IMG/VR virus record: IMGVR_UViG_2558860161_000004
Strand: one strand, 5' to 3'
Length of the DNA stretch: 7,256 nucleotides
Source of the DNA: a virus
Lineage: Duplodnaviria; Heunggongvirae; Uroviricota; Caudoviricetes
Part shown: in pieces, positions 654 to 6,956 of the stretch
Numbering within the stretch: position 1 is the first letter of the stretch
How the letters are laid out: the number at the start of each line of letters is the position of its first letter
Translations under genes and position numbers: made by a program
The notes under the pieces: generated by a model
What the model was told of the DNA's origin: nothing
The model's input: the letters and a program-made list of their open reading frames with translations, nothing else
Databases searched by the model: none

Positions 654-1844
654 ATGAGTGACTATCATCACGGCGTGCAGGTGCTGGAGATTAACGACGG
701 CACCCGCGTCATTTCCACCGTATCCACTGCCATTGTCGGCATGGTCTGCACGGCCAGCGATGCGGATGCGGAAACCTTCCCCCTCAATAAACCTGTGCTG
801 ATTACCAATGTGCAGAGCGCAATTGCAAAGGCCGGTAAAAAAGGCACGCTGGCAGCATCGTTGCAGGCCATCGCTGACCAGTCAAAACCGGTCACCGTTG
901 TCGTGCGTGTGGAAGACGGCACCGGCGAAGACGAGGAAACGAAACTTGCGCAGACCGTTTCCAATATCATTGGCACCACCGACGAAAACGGTCAGTACAC
1001 CGGACTGAAAGCCCTGCTGGCGGCGGAGTCGGTAACCGGTGTTAAACCGCGTATTCTCGGCGTGCCGGGACTGGACACCAAAGAGGTGGCTGTTGCACTG
1101 GCATCAGTCTGTCAGAAGCTGCGCGCTTTCGGGTATATCAGCGCATGGGGTTGTAAAACCATTTCCGAGGTGAAAGCCTACCGTCAGAATTTCAGCCAGC
1201 GTGAGCTGATGGTCATCTGGCCGGATTTCCTCGCATGGGATACGGTCACCAGTACTACCGCCACCGCGTATGCCACCGCCCGTGCGCTGGGTCTGCGTGC
1301 CAGAATTGACCAGGAGCAGGGCTGGCATAAAACGCTGTCCAATGTCGGGGTGAACGGTGTTACCGGCATCAGCGCCTCTGTATTCTGGGATTTGCAGGAG
1401 TCCGGCACCGATGCTGACTTGCTTAACGAGTCAGGCGTCACAACGCTGATTCGCCGCGACGGTTTCCGCTTCTGGGGTAACCGTACCTGCTCTGATGACC
1501 CGCTGTTCCTCTTTGAAAACTACACCCGCACCGCGCAGGTGCTGGCCGACACGATGGCTGAGGCGCACATGTGGGCGGTGGACAAGCCCATCACCGCAAC
1601 GCTGATTCGCGACATCGTTGACGGCATCAATGCCAAATTCCGTGAGCTGAAAACAAACGGCTATATCGTGGATGCGACCTGCTGGTTCAGCGAAGAATCC
1701 AACGATGCGGAAACCCTCAAGGCCGGAAAACTGTATATCGACTACGACTATACACCGGTGCCTCCTCTTGAAAACCTGACCCTGCGCCAGCGTATTACCG
1801 ATAAATACCTGGCAAATCTGGTCACTTCGGTTAACAGCAATTAA
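654..1844 (+). CDS. FI: Contractile tail sheath protein (P2 gpFI family)
   Basis: 396-aa ORF, the same length as P2 gpFI. The translation (MSDYHHGVQVLEIN...LANLVTSVNSN) matches my recollection of P2 FI essentially end to end. GGAG Shine-Dalgarno at 642-645, 8 nt upstream of the ATG. Followed immediately by the tube gene, as in P2. Confidence 0.95.
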   Translation: MSDYHHGVQVLEINDGTRVISTVSTAIVGMVCTASDADAETFPLNKPVLITNVQSAIAKAGKKGTLAASLQAIADQSKPVTVVVRVEDGTGEDEETKLAQTVSNIIGTTDENGQYTGLKALLAAESVTGVKPRILGVPGLDTKEVAVALASVCQKLRAFGYISAWGCKTISEVKAYRQNFSQRELMVIWPDFLAWDTVTSTTATAYATARALGLRARIDQEQGWHKTLSNVGVNGVTGISASVFWDLQESGTDADLLNESGVTTLIRRDGFRFWGNRTCSDDPLFLFENYTRTAQVLADTMAEAHMWAVDKPITATLIRDIVDGINAKFRELKTNGYIVDATCWFSEESNDAETLKAGKLYIDYDYTPVPPLENLTLRQRITDKYLANLVTSVNSN

Positions 1845-1856
1845 GGAGCCTGACCG

Positions 1857-2375
1857 ATGGCAATGCCGCGCAAACTCAAGTTAATGAACGTCTTTCTGAA
1901 CGGCTACAGCTATCAGGGCGTTGCAAAGTCCGTCACGCTGCCAAAACTGACCCGTAAGCTCGAAAACTATCGCGGTGCGGGGATGAACGGCAGCGCACCG
2001 GTAGACCTCGGCCTTGATGACGATGCGCTGTCAATGGAGTGGTCGCTCGGGGGCTTCCCGGATTCGGTTATCTGGGAGCTCTATGCCGCAACCGGCGTGG
2101 ATGCCGTACCGATTCGTTTTGCTGGCTCTTACCAGCGCGACGATACCGGCGAAACGGTGGCCGTCGAGGTGGTCATGCGTGGACGTCAGAAAGAAATCGA
2201 CACCGGCGAGGGGAAACAGGGAGAAGACACTGAGTCGAAAATCTCCGTGGTCTGCACCTATTTCCGGCTGACGATGGACGGTAAGGAGCTGGTCGAAATC
2301 GACACCATCAACATGATTGAGAAGGTGAACGGCGTCGACCGGCTGGAGCAACACCGCCGCAATATCGGCCTGTGA
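1857..2375 (+). CDS. FII: Tail tube protein (P2 gpFII family)
   Basis: 172-aa ORF, the same length as P2 gpFII (MAMPRKLKLMNVFLNGYSYQGV...). Strong AGGAG Shine-Dalgarno at 1846-1850, 6 nt before the ATG. Lies directly downstream of the sheath gene. Confidence 0.95.
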   Translation: MAMPRKLKLMNVFLNGYSYQGVAKSVTLPKLTRKLENYRGAGMNGSAPVDLGLDDDALSMEWSLGGFPDSVIWELYAATGVDAVPIRFAGSYQRDDTGETVAVEVVMRGRQKEIDTGEGKQGEDTESKISVVCTYFRLTMDGKELVEIDTINMIEKVNGVDRLEQHRRNIGL

Positions 2376-2382
2376 TTTTCAT

Positions 2383-2403
2383 CCGGTCAGCCAGGCTGAC
2401 CGG
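2383..2403 (+). other. Perfect 21-bp GC-rich palindrome (potential RNA hairpin) in the FII-E intergenic spacer
   Basis: CCGGTCAGCC-A-GGCTGACCGG read directly from the sequence: 10-nt arms that are exact reverse complements around a central A, giving an 8-9 bp stem with a 3-5 nt loop in RNA. It starts 8 nt after the FII stop and is followed by TTAACCCTGATTC, which is not a U-tract. Confidence 0.4.
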
Positions 2404-2431
2404 TTAACCCTGATTCAGAAGTGAGAAAACC

Positions 2432-2707
2432 ATGAACAAAGAAAATGTGATTACCCTGGACAATCCGGTCAAGCGTGGTGAGCAGGTCATCGAACAGGTC
2501 ACGCTGATGAAACCCAATGCCGGGACGCTGCGCGGTGTCAGTCTGGCTGCGGTCGCGAACTCCGAAGTCGATGCACTGATTAAGGTGCTGCCGCGCATGA
2601 CTGCACCGATGCTGACCGAGCAGGAAGTCGCCGCACTGGAACTGCCTGACCTTGTGGCGCTGGCCGGTAAGGTGGTCGGTTTTTTGTCGCCGAACTCGGT
2701 ACAGTGA
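2432..2707 (+). CDS. E: Tail assembly chaperone gpE (zero-frame product)
   Basis: 91-aa ORF, the same length as P2 gpE, ending ...GKVVGFLSPNSVQ. Located between the tube and tape-measure genes, the conserved position for the chaperone pair in contractile and non-contractile tails. Confidence 0.92.
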   Translation: MNKENVITLDNPVKRGEQVIEQVTLMKPNAGTLRGVSLAAVANSEVDALIKVLPRMTAPMLTEQEVAALELPDLVALAGKVVGFLSPNSVQ

Positions 2708-2859
2708 CGTTTCCGAAAAATCTGTCGGTCGATGACCTGATGGCGGATGTGGCAGTGATATTTCACTGGCCGCCATCAGAACTGTATCCCATGAGCCTGG
2801 CCGAACTCATCACATGGCGCGAAAAGGCGCTCCGGCGAAGCGGAAACACGAATGAGTAA
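2432..2859 (+). CDS. E': Tail assembly chaperone gpE+E' fusion made by programmed -1 ribosomal frameshift (join 2432..2686 and 2686..2859)
   Basis: I translated the -1 frame by hand from the slip site. After GGT TTT TTG the -1 frame reads V A E L G T V T F P K N L S V D D L M A D V A V I F H W P P S E L Y P M S L A E L I T W R E K A L R R S G N T N E and stops at TAA 2857-2859. The predicted fusion is 142 aa, matching P2 E+E'. The E' stop overlaps the T start codon at 2852. Confidence 0.8.
2680..2686 (+). promoter_or_regulatory. -1 frameshift slippery heptamer T TTT TTG (X XXY YYZ)
   Basis: Zero-frame codons GGT(2678-2680) TTT(2681-2683) TTG(2684-2686) place the six-T run plus G exactly in X XXY YYZ register, 7 codons before the E stop. 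This is the same heptamer class described for P2 E/E' and analogous to lambda G/GT. Confidence 0.8.
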
Positions 2860-5299
2860 CAATGTAAAATTACAGGTATTGCTCAGGGCTGTTGACCAGG
2901 CATCCCGCCCGTTTAAATCCATCCGTACAGCGAGTAAGTCGCTGTCGGGGGATATCCGGGAAACACAAAAATCACTGCGCGAGCTGAACGGTCACGCATC
3001 CCGTATTGAGGGATTCCGCAAGACCAGTGCACAGCTTGCCGTGACTGGTCATGCACTTGAAAAGGCACGGCAGGAAGCCGAAGCCCTTGCCACACAGTTT
3101 AAAAACACCGAACGTCCGACCCGTGCTCAGGCGAAAGTGCTGGAATCCGCAAAGCGTGCGGCGGAGGACTTACAGGCGAAATATAACCGCCTGACGGATT
3201 CCGTTAAACGCCAGCAGCGGGAACTGGCCGCTGTGGGAATTAATACCCGCAATCTTGCACATGATGAGCAGGGACTGAAAAACCGTATCAGTGAAACCAC
3301 CGCACAGCTTAACCGTCAGCGCGACGCGCTGGCGCGTGTCAGTGCGCAACAGGCAAAACTTAACGCAGTAAAACAGCGTTATCAGTCCGGAAAGGAACTG
3401 GCCGGAAATATGGCCTCAGTGGGCGCTGCCGGTGTGGGGATTGCGGCGGCGGGAACGATGGCCGGTGTTAAGCTACTGATGCCCGGTTATGAGTTTGCGC
3501 AGAAAAACTCAGAATTGCAGGCCGTGCTAGGTGTGGCAAAAGACTCCGCCGAAATGGCCGCATTACGCAAACAGGCGCGCCAGCTCGGCGACAATACCGC
3601 AGCCTCGGCAGATGATGCAGCCGGTGCGCAGATTATCATTGCGAAAGCCGGTGGGGATGTTGATGCCATTCAGGCGGCAACGCCGGTTACACTGAATATG
3701 GCGCTGGCGAACCGCCGCACGATGGAAGAAAACGCCGCCCTGCTGATGGGGATGAAATCTGCCTTTCAGCTTTCAAACGATAAGGTCGCTCATATCGGGG
3801 ATGTTCTCTCCATGACGATGAACAAAACCGCCGCCGATTTTGACGGCATGAGCGATGCGCTGACCTATGCCGCACCTGTGGCAAAAAATGCCGGTGTCAG
3901 CATTGAAGAAACCGCCGCAATGGTCGGGGCGCTGCATGATGCAAAAATTACAGGCTCAATGGCGGGGACGGGAAGCCGTGCCGTGTTAAGTCGCCTGCAG
4001 GCACCAACGGGAAAAGCATGGGATGCACTCAAAGAGCTTGGCGTGAAAACCTCAGACAGCAAGGGAAACACCCGGCCAATATTTACCATTCTGAAAGAAA
4101 TGCAGGCCAGTTTTGAGAAAAACCGGCTTGGTACTGCCCAGCAGGCTGAATACATGAAAACTATTTTCGGGGAGGAGGCCAGCTCAGCCGCCGCCGTGCT
4201 GATGACTGCCGCCTCAACCGGAAAGCTGGACAAACTGACCGCTGCGTTTAAAGCCTCAAACGGGAAGACTGCCGAGCTGGTAAATATCATGCAGGACAAC
4301 CTCGGCGGTGACTTTAAGGAGTTTCAGTCCGCTTATGAGGCGGTGGGGACAGACCTGTTTGACCAGCAGGAAGGCGCACTGCGTAAGCTCACACAGACGG
4401 CCACAAAGTATGTGTTAAAACTCGACGGCTGGATCCAGAAAAACAAATCACTGGCGTCAACCATTGGCATCATTGCCGGTGGCGCGCTGGCGCTTATTGG
4501 CATCATCGGTGCAATTGGTCTTGTAGCCTGGCCGGTTATCACTGGCATCAATGCCATCATCGCGGCAGCAGGCGCAATGGGGGCAATCTTCACGACGGTT
4601 GGCAGTGCTGTTATGACGGCCATCGGGGCGATTAGCTGGCCGGTTGTGGCCGTGGTGGCCGCCATTGTCGCCGGGGCGTTGCTTATCCGTAAATACTGGG
4701 AGCCTGTCAGCGCATTCTTTGGCGGTGTGGTGGAAGGGCTGAAAGCGGTATTTGCGCCGGTGGGGGAACTGTTCACGCCACTTAAGCCGGTGTTTGACTG
4801 GCTGGGCGAAAAGTTACAGGCCGCGTGGCAGTGGCTTAAAAACCTGATTGCCCCCGTCAAAGCCACCCAGGACACCCTGAACCGTTGTCGTGACACGGGT
4901 GTCATGTTCGGGCAGGCACTGGCTGACGCGTTGATGCTGCCGCTTAATGCGTTCAACAAACTGCGCAGCGGTATTGACTGGGTACTGGAAAAACTCGGTG
5001 TTATCAACAAAGAGTCAGACACACTTGACCAGACCGCCGCCAGAACTCAAGCCGCCACGTATGGCAGCGGTGGTTATATTCCGGCGACCAGCTCTTATGC
5101 AGGCTATCAGGCTTATCAGCCGGTCACGGCACCGGCTGGCCGCTCTTATGTGGACCAGAGTAAAAACGAATATCACATCAGCCTGACGGGTGGCACTGCG
5201 CCGGGGACACAGCTTGACCGCCAGTTACAGGATGCGCTCGAAAAATACGAGCGGGGTAAACGTGCGCGCGCCCGTGCCAGCATGATGCATGACGGTTAA
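2852..5299 (+). CDS. T: Tail tape measure protein (P2 gpT family)
   Basis: 815-aa ORF, the same length as P2 gpT. The N-terminal third is rich in Q/R/A/L/E heptad-like sequence (coiled coil). A long Gly/Ala/Ile-rich hydrophobic segment lies at about residues 532-616. It sits immediately downstream of the E/E' chaperone pair. All of this is typical of tape measure proteins. Confidence 0.95.
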   Translation: MSNNVKLQVLLRAVDQASRPFKSIRTASKSLSGDIRETQKSLRELNGHASRIEGFRKTSAQLAVTGHALEKARQEAEALATQFKNTERPTRAQAKVLESAKRAAEDLQAKYNRLTDSVKRQQRELAAVGINTRNLAHDEQGLKNRISETTAQLNRQRDALARVSAQQAKLNAVKQRYQSGKELAGNMASVGAAGVGIAAAGTMAGVKLLMPGYEFAQKNSELQAVLGVAKDSAEMAALRKQARQLGDNTAASADDAAGAQIIIAKAGGDVDAIQAATPVTLNMALANRRTMEENAALLMGMKSAFQLSNDKVAHIGDVLSMTMNKTAADFDGMSDALTYAAPVAKNAGVSIEETAAMVGALHDAKITGSMAGTGSRAVLSRLQAPTGKAWDALKELGVKTSDSKGNTRPIFTILKEMQASFEKNRLGTAQQAEYMKTIFGEEASSAAAVLMTAASTGKLDKLTAAFKASNGKTAELVNIMQDNLGGDFKEFQSAYEAVGTDLFDQQEGALRKLTQTATKYVLKLDGWIQKNKSLASTIGIIAGGALALIGIIGAIGLVAWPVITGINAIIAAAGAMGAIFTTVGSAVMTAIGAISWPVVAVVAAIVAGALLIRKYWEPVSAFFGGVVEGLKAVFAPVGELFTPLKPVFDWLGEKLQAAWQWLKNLIAPVKATQDTLNRCRDTGVMFGQALADALMLPLNAFNKLRSGIDWVLEKLGVINKESDTLDQTAARTQAATYGSGGYIPATSSYAGYQAYQPVTAPAGRSYVDQSKNEYHISLTGGTAPGTQLDRQLQDALEKYERGKRARARASMMHDG

Positions 5300-5313: not shown

Positions 5314-5793
5314 ATGATGCTCGCGTTAGGTATGTTTGTTTTTATGCGCCAGACGCTGCCACACCAGACCATGCAGCGTGAATCAGATTATCGCTGGCCG
5401 TCAAATTCCCGTATCGGTAAACGGGATGCCTACCAGTTTCTCGGTGTGGGTGAGGAAAACATGACGCTTGCCGGCGTGCTTTATCCCGAACTGACCGGCG
5501 GGAAGCTGACGATGACCACGCTCAGGCTAATGGCAGAGGAAGGCCGGGCGTGGCCGTTGCTGGATGGCACCGGCATGATTTACGGCATGTATGTCATCAG
5601 CAGGGTGAGTGAAACAGGGAGTATTTTCTTTGCAGACGGCACACCCCGAAAAATTGATTTTACGCTGTCGCTCACCCGTGTTGATGAATCACTGGCCGCG
5701 CTTTATGGCGATATCGGTAAACAGGCGGAATCGCTCATCGGTAAGGCTGGCAGTATGGCGGCTAAATTCACGGGTATGACGGGGGCGGAATAA
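5314..5793 (+). CDS. U: Tail protein gpU (P2 GpU family; tail/baseplate assembly component)
   Basis: 159-aa ORF, the same length as P2 gpU. Strong AAGGAGGTGA Shine-Dalgarno at 5298-5307, ending 6 nt before the ATG. Position between T and D is as in P2. The precise structural role is not asserted from sequence. Confidence 0.92.
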   Translation: MMLALGMFVFMRQTLPHQTMQRESDYRWPSNSRIGKRDAYQFLGVGEENMTLAGVLYPELTGGKLTMTTLRLMAEEGRAWPLLDGTGMIYGMYVISRVSETGSIFFADGTPRKIDFTLSLTRVDESLAALYGDIGKQAESLIGKAGSMAAKFTGMTGAE

Positions 5794-6956
5794 TGCTGGA
5801 TGCGCGGACATTTAATGCAGGCAGTACGCTGACGCCGGATTACATGCTGATGCTCGACAGCAGTGATATTACCGGTAATATCAGCGACCGTCTGATGAGC
5901 ATGACCCTGACGGATAACCGGGGCTTTGAGGCTGACCAGCTTGATATTGAACTGAACGATGCCGACGGGCAGGTCGGGCTGCCGGTTCGTGGCGCTGTCC
6001 TGACGGTGTATATCGGCTGGAAAGGTTTTGCCCTGGTATGCAAAGGGAAATTTACCGTTGATGAGGTTGAACACCGGGGCGCGCCGGATGTGGTCACCAT
6101 CCGCGCCCGGAGTGCAGATTTTCGCGGGACGCTCAATTCCCGCCGTGAAGGTTCATGGCATGACACCACGCTCGGTGCGATTGTTGAGGCGATAGCCTCC
6201 CGTAACAGGCTGGAAGCCAGTGTCGCTCCGTCACTGGCCGGAATTAAAATCCCACACATCGACCAGTCGCAGGAGTCCGACGCGAAATTCCTGACCCGTC
6301 TTGCAGAACGCAACGGCGGTGAGGTGTCGGTAAAAATGGGAAAACTGTTGTTTCTCAAAGCGGGGCAGGGGGTGACGGCCAGTGGTAAAAAAATCCCGCA
6401 GGTCACCATAACCCGCAGCGACGGCGACCGCCATCATTTTGCGATTGCTGACCGTGGAGCCTATACCGGCGTAACGGCAAAGTGGTTACACACCAAAGAC
6501 CCGAAGCCACAAAAGCAGAAGGTAAAACTGAAACGCAAAAAGAAAGAGAAACACCTGCGCGCACTGGAGCACCCGAAAGCGAAACCGGTCACGCAGAAGA
6601 AAGCGCCAAAAGTACCGGAAGCGCGCGAAGGTGAATACATGGCAGGTGAGGCTGACAACGTTTTTGCCCTGACCACGGTATATGCCACGAAAGCACAGGC
6701 CATGCGTGCTGCTCAGGCGAAGTGGGATAAACTGCAACGGGGCGTTGCGGAGTTCTCCATCATCCTGGCTACCGGTCGTGCAGATATTTACACGGAAACA
6801 CCGGTCAGAGTGTCAGGCTTTAAGCGCGTCATAGACGAGCAGGACTGGACAATCACTAAGGTGACACACTTTCTGAATAATTCCGGCTTCACGACGTCCT
6901 TAGAGCTTGAGGTCAGGCTTTCTGATGTGGAGTATGAAACAGAAGATAATGAGTGA
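5793..6956 (+). CDS. D: Tail protein gpD (P2 late control gene D family; probable baseplate hub-like protein)
   Basis: 387-aa ORF, the same length as P2 gpD. Its start overlaps the U stop by one base (TAATG at 5791-5795). It contains an internal lysine-rich low-complexity stretch. The hub-like role is from literature on P2-like tails and R-type pyocins, not from this sequence. Confidence 0.92.
   Translation: MLDARTFNAGSTLTPDYMLMLDSSDITGNISDRLMSMTLTDNRGFEADQLDIELNDADGQVGLPVRGAVLTVYIGWKGFALVCKGKFTVDEVEHRGAPDVVTIRARSADFRGTLNSRREGSWHDTTLGAIVEAIASRNRLEASVAPSLAGIKIPHIDQSQESDAKFLTRLAERNGGEVSVKMGKLLFLKAGQGVTASGKKIPQVTITRSDGDRHHFAIADRGAYTGVTAKWLHTKDPKPQKQKVKLKRKKKEKHLRALEHPKAKPVTQKKAPKVPEAREGEYMAGEADNVFALTTVYATKAQAMRAAQAKWDKLQRGVAEFSIILATGRADIYTETPVRVSGFKRVIDEQDWTITKVTHFLNNSGFTTSLELEVRLSDVEYETEDNE

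Follow-up and report, generated by a model that had tools for sequence, protein, structure and literature searches.

A probable P2-type programmed -1 frameshift signal in the tail operon of a P2-like prophage, with candidate flanking elements

The locus raises the question of how the E' segment, an open frame displaced by one base relative to the tail gene E that it overlaps, comes to be translated, and which features of the surrounding sequence could bring this about. The window, by which we mean the whole stretch of 7,256 bases analysed, was identified from its open reading frames and database matches as a tail-gene block of a P2-like (Peduovirus) prophage. From the sequence, the E/E+E' signal is with high confidence a P2-type programmed -1 ribosomal frameshift in the tail operon of this prophage. 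Because the frameshift at 2680-2686 is a textbook feature of P2, and lies here in a very common E. coli prophage, it is already known.

Gene layout, slip site and predicted products

The operon has the order FI-FII-E-E'-T-U-D, in which P2 and E. coli genomes in RefSeq are also annotated, and the E/E' pair is flanked by FII, for the tail tube, and T, for the tape measure. The features, in window coordinates, are as follows.

1-594, + strand: DNA invertase (recombinase family), open reading frame
654-1844, + strand: FI, sheath, open reading frame
1857-2375, + strand: FII, tube, open reading frame
2432-2707, + strand: E, tail assembly chaperone of 91 aa and zero-frame product, open reading frame matching Pfam PF10109
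2680-2686, + strand: slippery heptamer T TTT TTG, X XXY YYZ register checked
2686-2859, + strand: E' segment in the -1 frame, 57 codons and a stop, matching Pfam PF06528
2432-2686 then 2686-2859, base 2686 read twice, + strand: E+E' fusion of 142 aa, conceptual translation
2705-2707, + strand: TGA stop of E in the zero frame, seven codons past TTG
2852-2859, + strand: overlap of the T start (ATG 2852) and the E' stop, ATGAGTAA, with E' ending 8 nt into T
2852-5299, + strand: T, tail tape measure protein, open reading frame, annotated as such in P2 and RefSeq E. coli
5314-5793, + strand: U, open reading frame
5793-6956, + strand: D, open reading frame
3' of D in the window, + strand: ogr, start only, open reading frame

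Across the whole window, the best E. coli matches show about 98% identity, and their genes bear the same names in RefSeq; window-like DNA was found in 3141 of 5426 complete E. coli genomes. Among phage records, 74, all of them P2-like, are 95-99% identical to the 521 bases around the slip site. E, which RefSeq names 'phage tail assembly protein', matches PF10109 (Phage_TAC_7) at E=2.6e-12 and 47 bits (cut-off 25), and the -1 product matches PF06528 (Phage_P2_GpE) at E=4.9e-22 and 75-78 bits (cut-off 23). A sequence search of the PDB returned no relative of E+E' among solved structures, and an Rfam scan of positions 2300-3000 gave only two chance-level hits (E=0.31), far under the gathering scores.

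Two features lie outside the E/E' pair itself. The DNA invertase at 1-594 is directly upstream of FI; in a matching E. coli genome, where the corresponding region is 1438-3594 of locus L081, the invertase adjoins oppositely oriented tail-fibre and tail-fibre-assembly genes. This region looks like an invertible host-range segment that replaces the corresponding part of the P2 reference layout. The FII-E intergenic region contains a GC-rich stem-loop, CCGGTCAGCC-A-GGCTGACCGG, at 2383-2403 (z=-3.3), without a U-tract, and hairpins of differing sequence recur at the same place in relatives. It may be an mRNA stabiliser or partial attenuator, set between the abundant FI and FII products and the low-level E-T-U-D genes.

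Within E, TTTTTTG at 2680-2686 is the only in-register XXXYYYZ heptamer, the zero frame running GGT(2678) TTT(2681) TTG(2684) TCG CCG AAC TCG GTA CAG TGA(2705-2707). The -1 frame from 2686 reads VAELGTVTFPKNLSVDDLMADVAVIFHWPPSELYPMSLAELITWREKALRRSGNTNE and then a stop, 58 codons when the TAA at 2857-2859 is included. A TAA five codons upstream of the heptamer closes the -1 frame on the other side, and E' can thus be entered only within a 12-codon overlap, which contains the heptamer. The window contains TTTTTTG about as often as chance predicts (2 observed against 1.92 expected); what makes this copy significant is its register, position and conservation. The initial annotation had placed the heptamer in exact X XXY YYZ register seven codons before the E stop, with a -1 frame open for 58 codons and ending 8 nt into T, and these coordinates were verified (stop at 2857-2859, ATG at 2852).

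In the mechanism that we propose, most ribosomes would translate E from 2432 to 2707, stopping at the TGA at 2705 to yield the 91-aa chaperone. A minority would slip back by one base with tRNA-Phe in the P site on UUU (2681-2683) and tRNA-Leu in the A site on UUG (2684-2686), both tRNAs presumably re-pairing on UUU UUU (2680-2685). The shifted ribosomes would then read the -1 frame from 2686 to the TAA at 2857-2859 and produce the 142-aa E+E', such that E' would be translated only as a C-terminal extension of E. If lambda G/GT is a guide, the E part common to both products would be expected to bind the tape measure protein and the E' part to recruit the tail tube or sheath subunit, with neither E nor E+E' present in the virion.

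The route of slippage bears on the peptide expected at the junction. The canonical tandem slip, in which UUG is decoded as Leu, would give the junction GFLVAELG and the predicted tryptic peptide VVGFLVAELGTVTFPK, while a P-site-only slip or a U7 transcript would give GFFVAELG and the predicted tryptic peptide VVGFFVAELGTVTFPK, 34 Da heavier. The junction proposed in the initial annotation, GF/FVAELG, is that of a plain -1 conceptual translation and needs correction, as canonical tandem slippage predicts GFL/VAELG. A further variant is found in the RefSeq record of P2, where the join (NC_001895 position 19685, or 686 in locus L001, read twice) re-reads the base after the heptamer and gives GFLFAELG; this fits neither the tandem (GFLV) nor the plain -1 (GFFV) junction, and is one base off either.

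Compared with P2 (NC_001895) without gaps, 511 of 525 bases are identical, leaving 14 differences (97% identity), and neither the heptamer nor the 20 bases on each side of it contains any difference. The E+E' product is identical to the P2 reading at 139 of 142 residues, the three substitutions being N29S, the only one in E, and T/A and A/T in E'. P2 gpE/gpE+E' (Christie et al. 2002) is the same gene pair in the same position of the FETUD operon, with products of 91 and 142 aa in both; the window differs in carrying an invertase upstream of FI, a difference unrelated to the frameshift. The RefSeq record of P2 annotates E (91 aa) and a joined CDS for E+E' (P2p25/P2p26), marks a misc_feature 'site of -1 translational frameshift', and describes the fusion as 'shares amino terminus with gpE; -1 frameshift; essential tail protein'. 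Likewise, a study of Burkholderia P2-like phages (PMC3091744), with reference to Christie et al. 2002 and Xu et al. 2004, places the -1 frameshift of P2 at TTTTTTG and derives both E (91 aa) and E+E' (142 aa) from a single start. For lambda, a large review of recoding (PMC5009743) gives a G:GT ratio of 30:1, and describes P2 and related phages as 2- to 3-fold more efficient. Our account of P2, a fusion made by a -1 shift at TTTTTTG at two to three times the lambda frequency, is taken from this literature and the P2 record.

The view that the locus holds a conserved and non-novel chaperone frameshift was borne out by the 97% DNA identity to P2, the identical slip site and the joined CDS of P2. 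The comparison of the -1 product with P2 E' that had been proposed as a check was likewise positive, in both the PF06528 match (E=4.9e-22) and the near-identity of the two fusions (139/142).

Conservation of the site and competing readings

We searched one genome per bacterial species; proteins related to the fusion, with identities of 36-100%, were encoded at 79 loci, in Enterobacterales, Yersinia, Serratia, Rahnella, Cupriavidus/Ralstonia, sphingomonads, Tolumonas and Crenobacter, beta- and alpha-proteobacteria included. The window, P2 and 77 further loci make up the 79 distinct site-carrying sequences used below; being related, these are not independent trials, and their flanks have diverged extensively. 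Of the six peptide patterns by which the loci were located, one (LAGKVVGF) ends one codon before the heptamer, a mild ascertainment bias; distant loci that lack this peptide still carry the heptamer.

The motif NNT TTT TT[G/A] is invariant in zero-frame register in all 79 distinct sequences, down to 36% protein identity. Among the 78 fetched loci that have the site, the last base is G in 70 and A in the other 8, and no locus with both halves present and intact lacks the motif. The first T is always the last base of GGT, AGT, GAT, TAT, AAT or CCT, codons for six different amino acids; in the same genes, T occupies 15% of third positions, TTT makes up 46% of Phe codons, and TTG and TTA together 7% of Leu codons. 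Codons that differ in amino acid yet end in T, against these backgrounds, indicate that conservation acts on the nucleotide sequence and not on the protein. No relative has a stop in the -1 frame between the site and the conserved domain, and in all 79 sequences the -1 extension is 54-83 codons long after the site. The E stop lies seven codons after the site in 60 of the 79, and 6, 13, 14, 17, 23 or 35 codons after it in the others.

We additionally noted exceptions and anomalies among the recovered loci. Two (L058 and L079) lack the site, of which L079 matches E' only. At position 1723 of L058, from the Enterobacter sp. EA-1 chromosome, a T5 run replaces the T6 run, and E contains a second frame break; homopolymer sequencing errors in the assembly, or a decaying prophage, are the most likely causes. 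Enterobacterial-type P2-like sequence, at 83-93% protein identity, was also present in assemblies labelled as Chryseobacterium sp. 18061 and Vagococcus sp. WN89Y (L004, L011 and L013), occurrences that most likely reflect contaminated or mislabelled assemblies.

Transcriptional slippage, which we consider improbable, would also produce the fusion. RNA polymerase would add a U within the T6 run, maybe aided by a nascent hairpin immediately upstream, as at terminator-like slippage signals, and the U7 mRNA would encode E+E' with the junction GFFVAELG. The homopolymeric T6 run itself is consistent with this reading, as is a stem immediately next to the T run, at 2659-2680, that was returned by a scan for terminator-like structures, and the weakness of the heptamer as a ribosomal site in E. 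coli reporters means that another mechanism could supply the product. The stem is, however, G.U-rich (z=-0.98), 30 of 200 shuffled sequences fold as well, and its 5' arm varies at synonymous sites in relatives without compensation. Moreover, the reporter value of 0.118% for UUUUUUG already includes any transcriptional share from T6, with a U7 run giving only 0.33% (PMC4066793), figures too low to allow much slippage by RNA polymerase; T7 or T8 runs occur in 0 of the 79 sequences, the next base always being a purine that keeps the Leu codon; and the P2 record and the literature call the event translational. The fold score (z=-0.98) gives the stem and T run no support as a terminator or slippage signal.

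Even less credit can be given to the proposal that E' is an independent small gene, with its start at GTG 2704 (51 aa) or ATG 2740 (39 aa), to which the heptamer would be incidental. RefSeq/PGAP does contain such a CDS, named 'GpE family phage tail protein', and the Pfam GpE model starts at the Met of ATG 2740. Against this, GTG is found at the position of 2704 in only 4 of 79 relatives, 44 of which have GTA; neither GTG 2704 nor ATG 2740 is preceded by an SD-like sequence, and the latter lies within the 5' arm of a stable hairpin. Across the 79 relatives, widely conserved start-type codons of E' occur only inside the conserved domain, without an SD. Neither the -1 frame that is open to the domain in every relative nor the synonymous-site conservation of the heptamer would be needed by a gene with its own initiation, and P2 is annotated as a fusion.

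That the heptamer and overlapping frame are a functionless coincidence can be dismissed: although TTTTTTG occurs at chance frequency in the window and an in-register XXXYYYZ would be expected in a 12-codon overlap in about 5% of single sequences, this reading is already refuted by a register that is invariant in 79 diverged sequences from Enterobacterales and beta- and alpha-proteobacteria, and the -1 product is a conserved Pfam domain.

Candidate elements around a weak heptamer

Programmed -1 ribosomal frameshifting, as the preferred reading, leaves the efficiency of the site to be accounted for. In E. coli reporters covering all 64 heptamers, frameshifting at U_UUU_UUG amounted to 0.118% unaided, rose to 0.247% when the IS911 stimulators were present and reached 0.765% in combination with the IS3 pseudoknot; the corresponding values for U_UUU_UUA were 0.094, 0.266 and 1.27% (PMC4066793 supplement). 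U_UUU_UUG is absent from the efficient E. coli motifs and among the best in eukaryotic assays (PMC4066793). Given this weakness in reporters, tandem slippage on the heptamer alone does not explain the efficiency of several percent reported for P2.

Classical stimulators were not found at the expected positions. The initial annotation had suggested that a stimulatory structure be sought 5-9 nt downstream of the slip site; no stem-loop or pseudoknot was identified there, the 60 nt after the heptamer folding no better than shuffled sequences (z=-0.04). This negative outcome agrees with PMC3091744, according to which a downstream hairpin was not found in P2 or its relatives. A GCCG-NNNN-CGGC stem 2-3 nt after the heptamer was rejected as too close; as it lies in a dual-coding stretch, it is also inseparable from protein constraint. 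An internal Shine-Dalgarno sequence at 9-14 nt upstream is likewise missing, the nearest SD-like element ending 2-5 nt upstream. Ribosome queueing behind the E stop or a distal hairpin, judged by geometry only, was also rejected as a general mechanism, as the distances of 7 and about 17 codons would put no trailing ribosome on the slip site, and the distance to the stop varies between 6 and 35 codons.

Two candidate elements flank the heptamer.

2669-2677, + strand: Shine-Dalgarno-like sequence AAGGUGGUC, candidate context element, complementary to the 16S rRNA 3' tail
2737-2779, + strand: hairpin inside E', outer stem of 10 bp (CUGAUGGCGG/CCGCCAUCAG), inner stem of 6 bp

The SD-like element AAGGUGGUC ends 2-5 nt before the heptamer. 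Its predicted duplex with the anti-SD has an energy of -14.0 kcal/mol in the window and a median of -12.2 in 79 loci, against -3.6 +/- 2.5 kcal/mol elsewhere in the same E genes, where only 0.08% of 16-nt segments are as strong. The codons within it are biased, with AAG:AAA at 55:3 compared with a background of 140:201 and GTG in 68 of 79, and the native pairing is about 4.8 kcal/mol stronger than that of synonymous recodings (mean z=-1.5; 66 of 79 below -1). This bias was observed in several peptide contexts and is absent in the most divergent alpha-proteobacterial loci. According to the recoding review, an upstream SD stimulates -1 shifts at 9-14 nt and +1 shifts at 3 nt. The spacing of 2-5 nt falls outside the former range, with its lower end near the 3 nt of +1 shifts; a stimulatory role is thus not predicted by current rules and would be purely hypothetical.

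The hairpin begins 50 nt downstream of the heptamer, in a 100-nt segment with a fold z of -3.8, and is too distant for a classical stimulator. It recurs across Enterobacterales, with 93.5% of cells paired in 51 distinct sequences. There is little covariation, essentially from one lineage, in which GCG/CCG is changed to GCC/GGG at the cost of a Pro-to-Gly replacement. Compared with synonymous recodings that keep the peptide, the native hairpin gains about 9 kcal/mol in stability (mean z=-2.9). Of the 429 in-frame 54-nt segments of the window it takes first place, with a few others close behind. ATG 2740, which encodes the Met where the Pfam GpE model starts, is sequestered in its 5' arm. As most ribosomes end at 2707, positions 2708-2851 should be mostly untranslated; in a putative role, the hairpin could suppress spurious initiation, or could protect 2708-2851 from RNases or Rho.

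We tentatively propose, while considering it rather unlikely, that the AAGGUGRUC SD-like element and/or the hairpin raise the weak U_UUU_UUG to several percent, or protect or silence E', as cis-elements undescribed in the literature searched. That search returned no described SD-like or other stimulator of a TTTTTTG tail-chaperone site, which does not prove that none has been described.

Related systems, coupling to T and consequences for annotation

The slip site of lambda is G GGA AAG, unlike the T TTT TTG found here. The layout itself resembles lambda gpG/gpGT (Levin et al. 1993; Xu, Hendrix & Duda 2004, 2013, 2014), where two overlapping ORFs likewise lie between the major tail and tape measure genes, and in both lambda and the P2 type the second ORF is in the -1 frame and gives a low-frequency fusion. 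The lambda order V-G-T-H parallels that of tube gene, E, E' and tape measure, and the T/H overlap of lambda is 8 nt, the same as that of E'/T here. With overlapping ORFs, a slippery sequence and a shifted second ORF, E/E' has the G/GT-type layout. BLASTP gave no alignment of E with lambda gpG at E<=100, and the definition of the G/GT family does not require similarity; a lack of similarity to lambda gpG is also mentioned in PMC5009743. Lambda differs as a siphovirus with a ratio of about 1:30, the figure reported for P2 in the same source being 2-3 fold higher. The functional importance of a fixed E to E+E' ratio, as claimed in the initial annotation, stands as documented for lambda G/GT (PMC5009743), whereas for P2 it has so far been inferred only.

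Two further systems share parts of the signal. E. coli dnaX (A AAA AAG) is a bacterial case of tandem -1 slippage on X XXY YYZ with an upstream complement to the anti-SD, as here; as described in the recoding review, however, its SD is 10 nt upstream and a stem-loop lies within a few nt, compared with 2-5 nt and no nearby 3' structure here. The HIV-1 gag-pol site U UUU UUA belongs to the same U6-purine class, read by tRNA-Phe and tRNA-Leu, and TTTTTTA is present in 8 of the related loci; the HIV-1 site differs in being eukaryotic and in having a 3' stem-loop.

The end of E' is tied to the start of T in nearly all relatives, where the E' stop and T start overlap as ATGAGTAA/ATGAGTGA or ATGA. 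The anti-SD complementarity of T (2832-2851) is the weakest of the six operon genes tested, at -3.7 kcal/mol compared with -5.1 to -17.8. With E' ending 8 nt inside T and the ribosome-binding site of T very weak, shifted ribosomes probably help to start T, and we infer that translation of T is plausibly coupled in part to frameshifted ribosomes.

In RefSeq/PGAP annotation, E' is given as a free-standing 51-aa CDS from GTG 2704 (2704-2859 in the window, 5704-5859 in L081), leaving the 142-aa fusion unannotated, and several phage records have only hypothetical proteins at the E' locus. These entries, the 'GpE family' CDS and the hypothetical proteins elsewhere, agree with the earlier remark that automated annotation misses the fusion. 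As PGAP calls a stand-alone 51-aa E', protein databases lack the 142-aa product for thousands of genomes.

P2-like phages, which rank among the commonest prophages of E. coli, require the E:E+E' pair to build their contractile tails. The heptamer conserved in the family shifts frame poorly in E. coli reporter assays, and the flanking SD-like element and hairpin are testable candidates for how the ratio is reached. If true, the SD-like element or the hairpin would represent a non-canonical stimulator geometry for bacterial -1 frameshifting.
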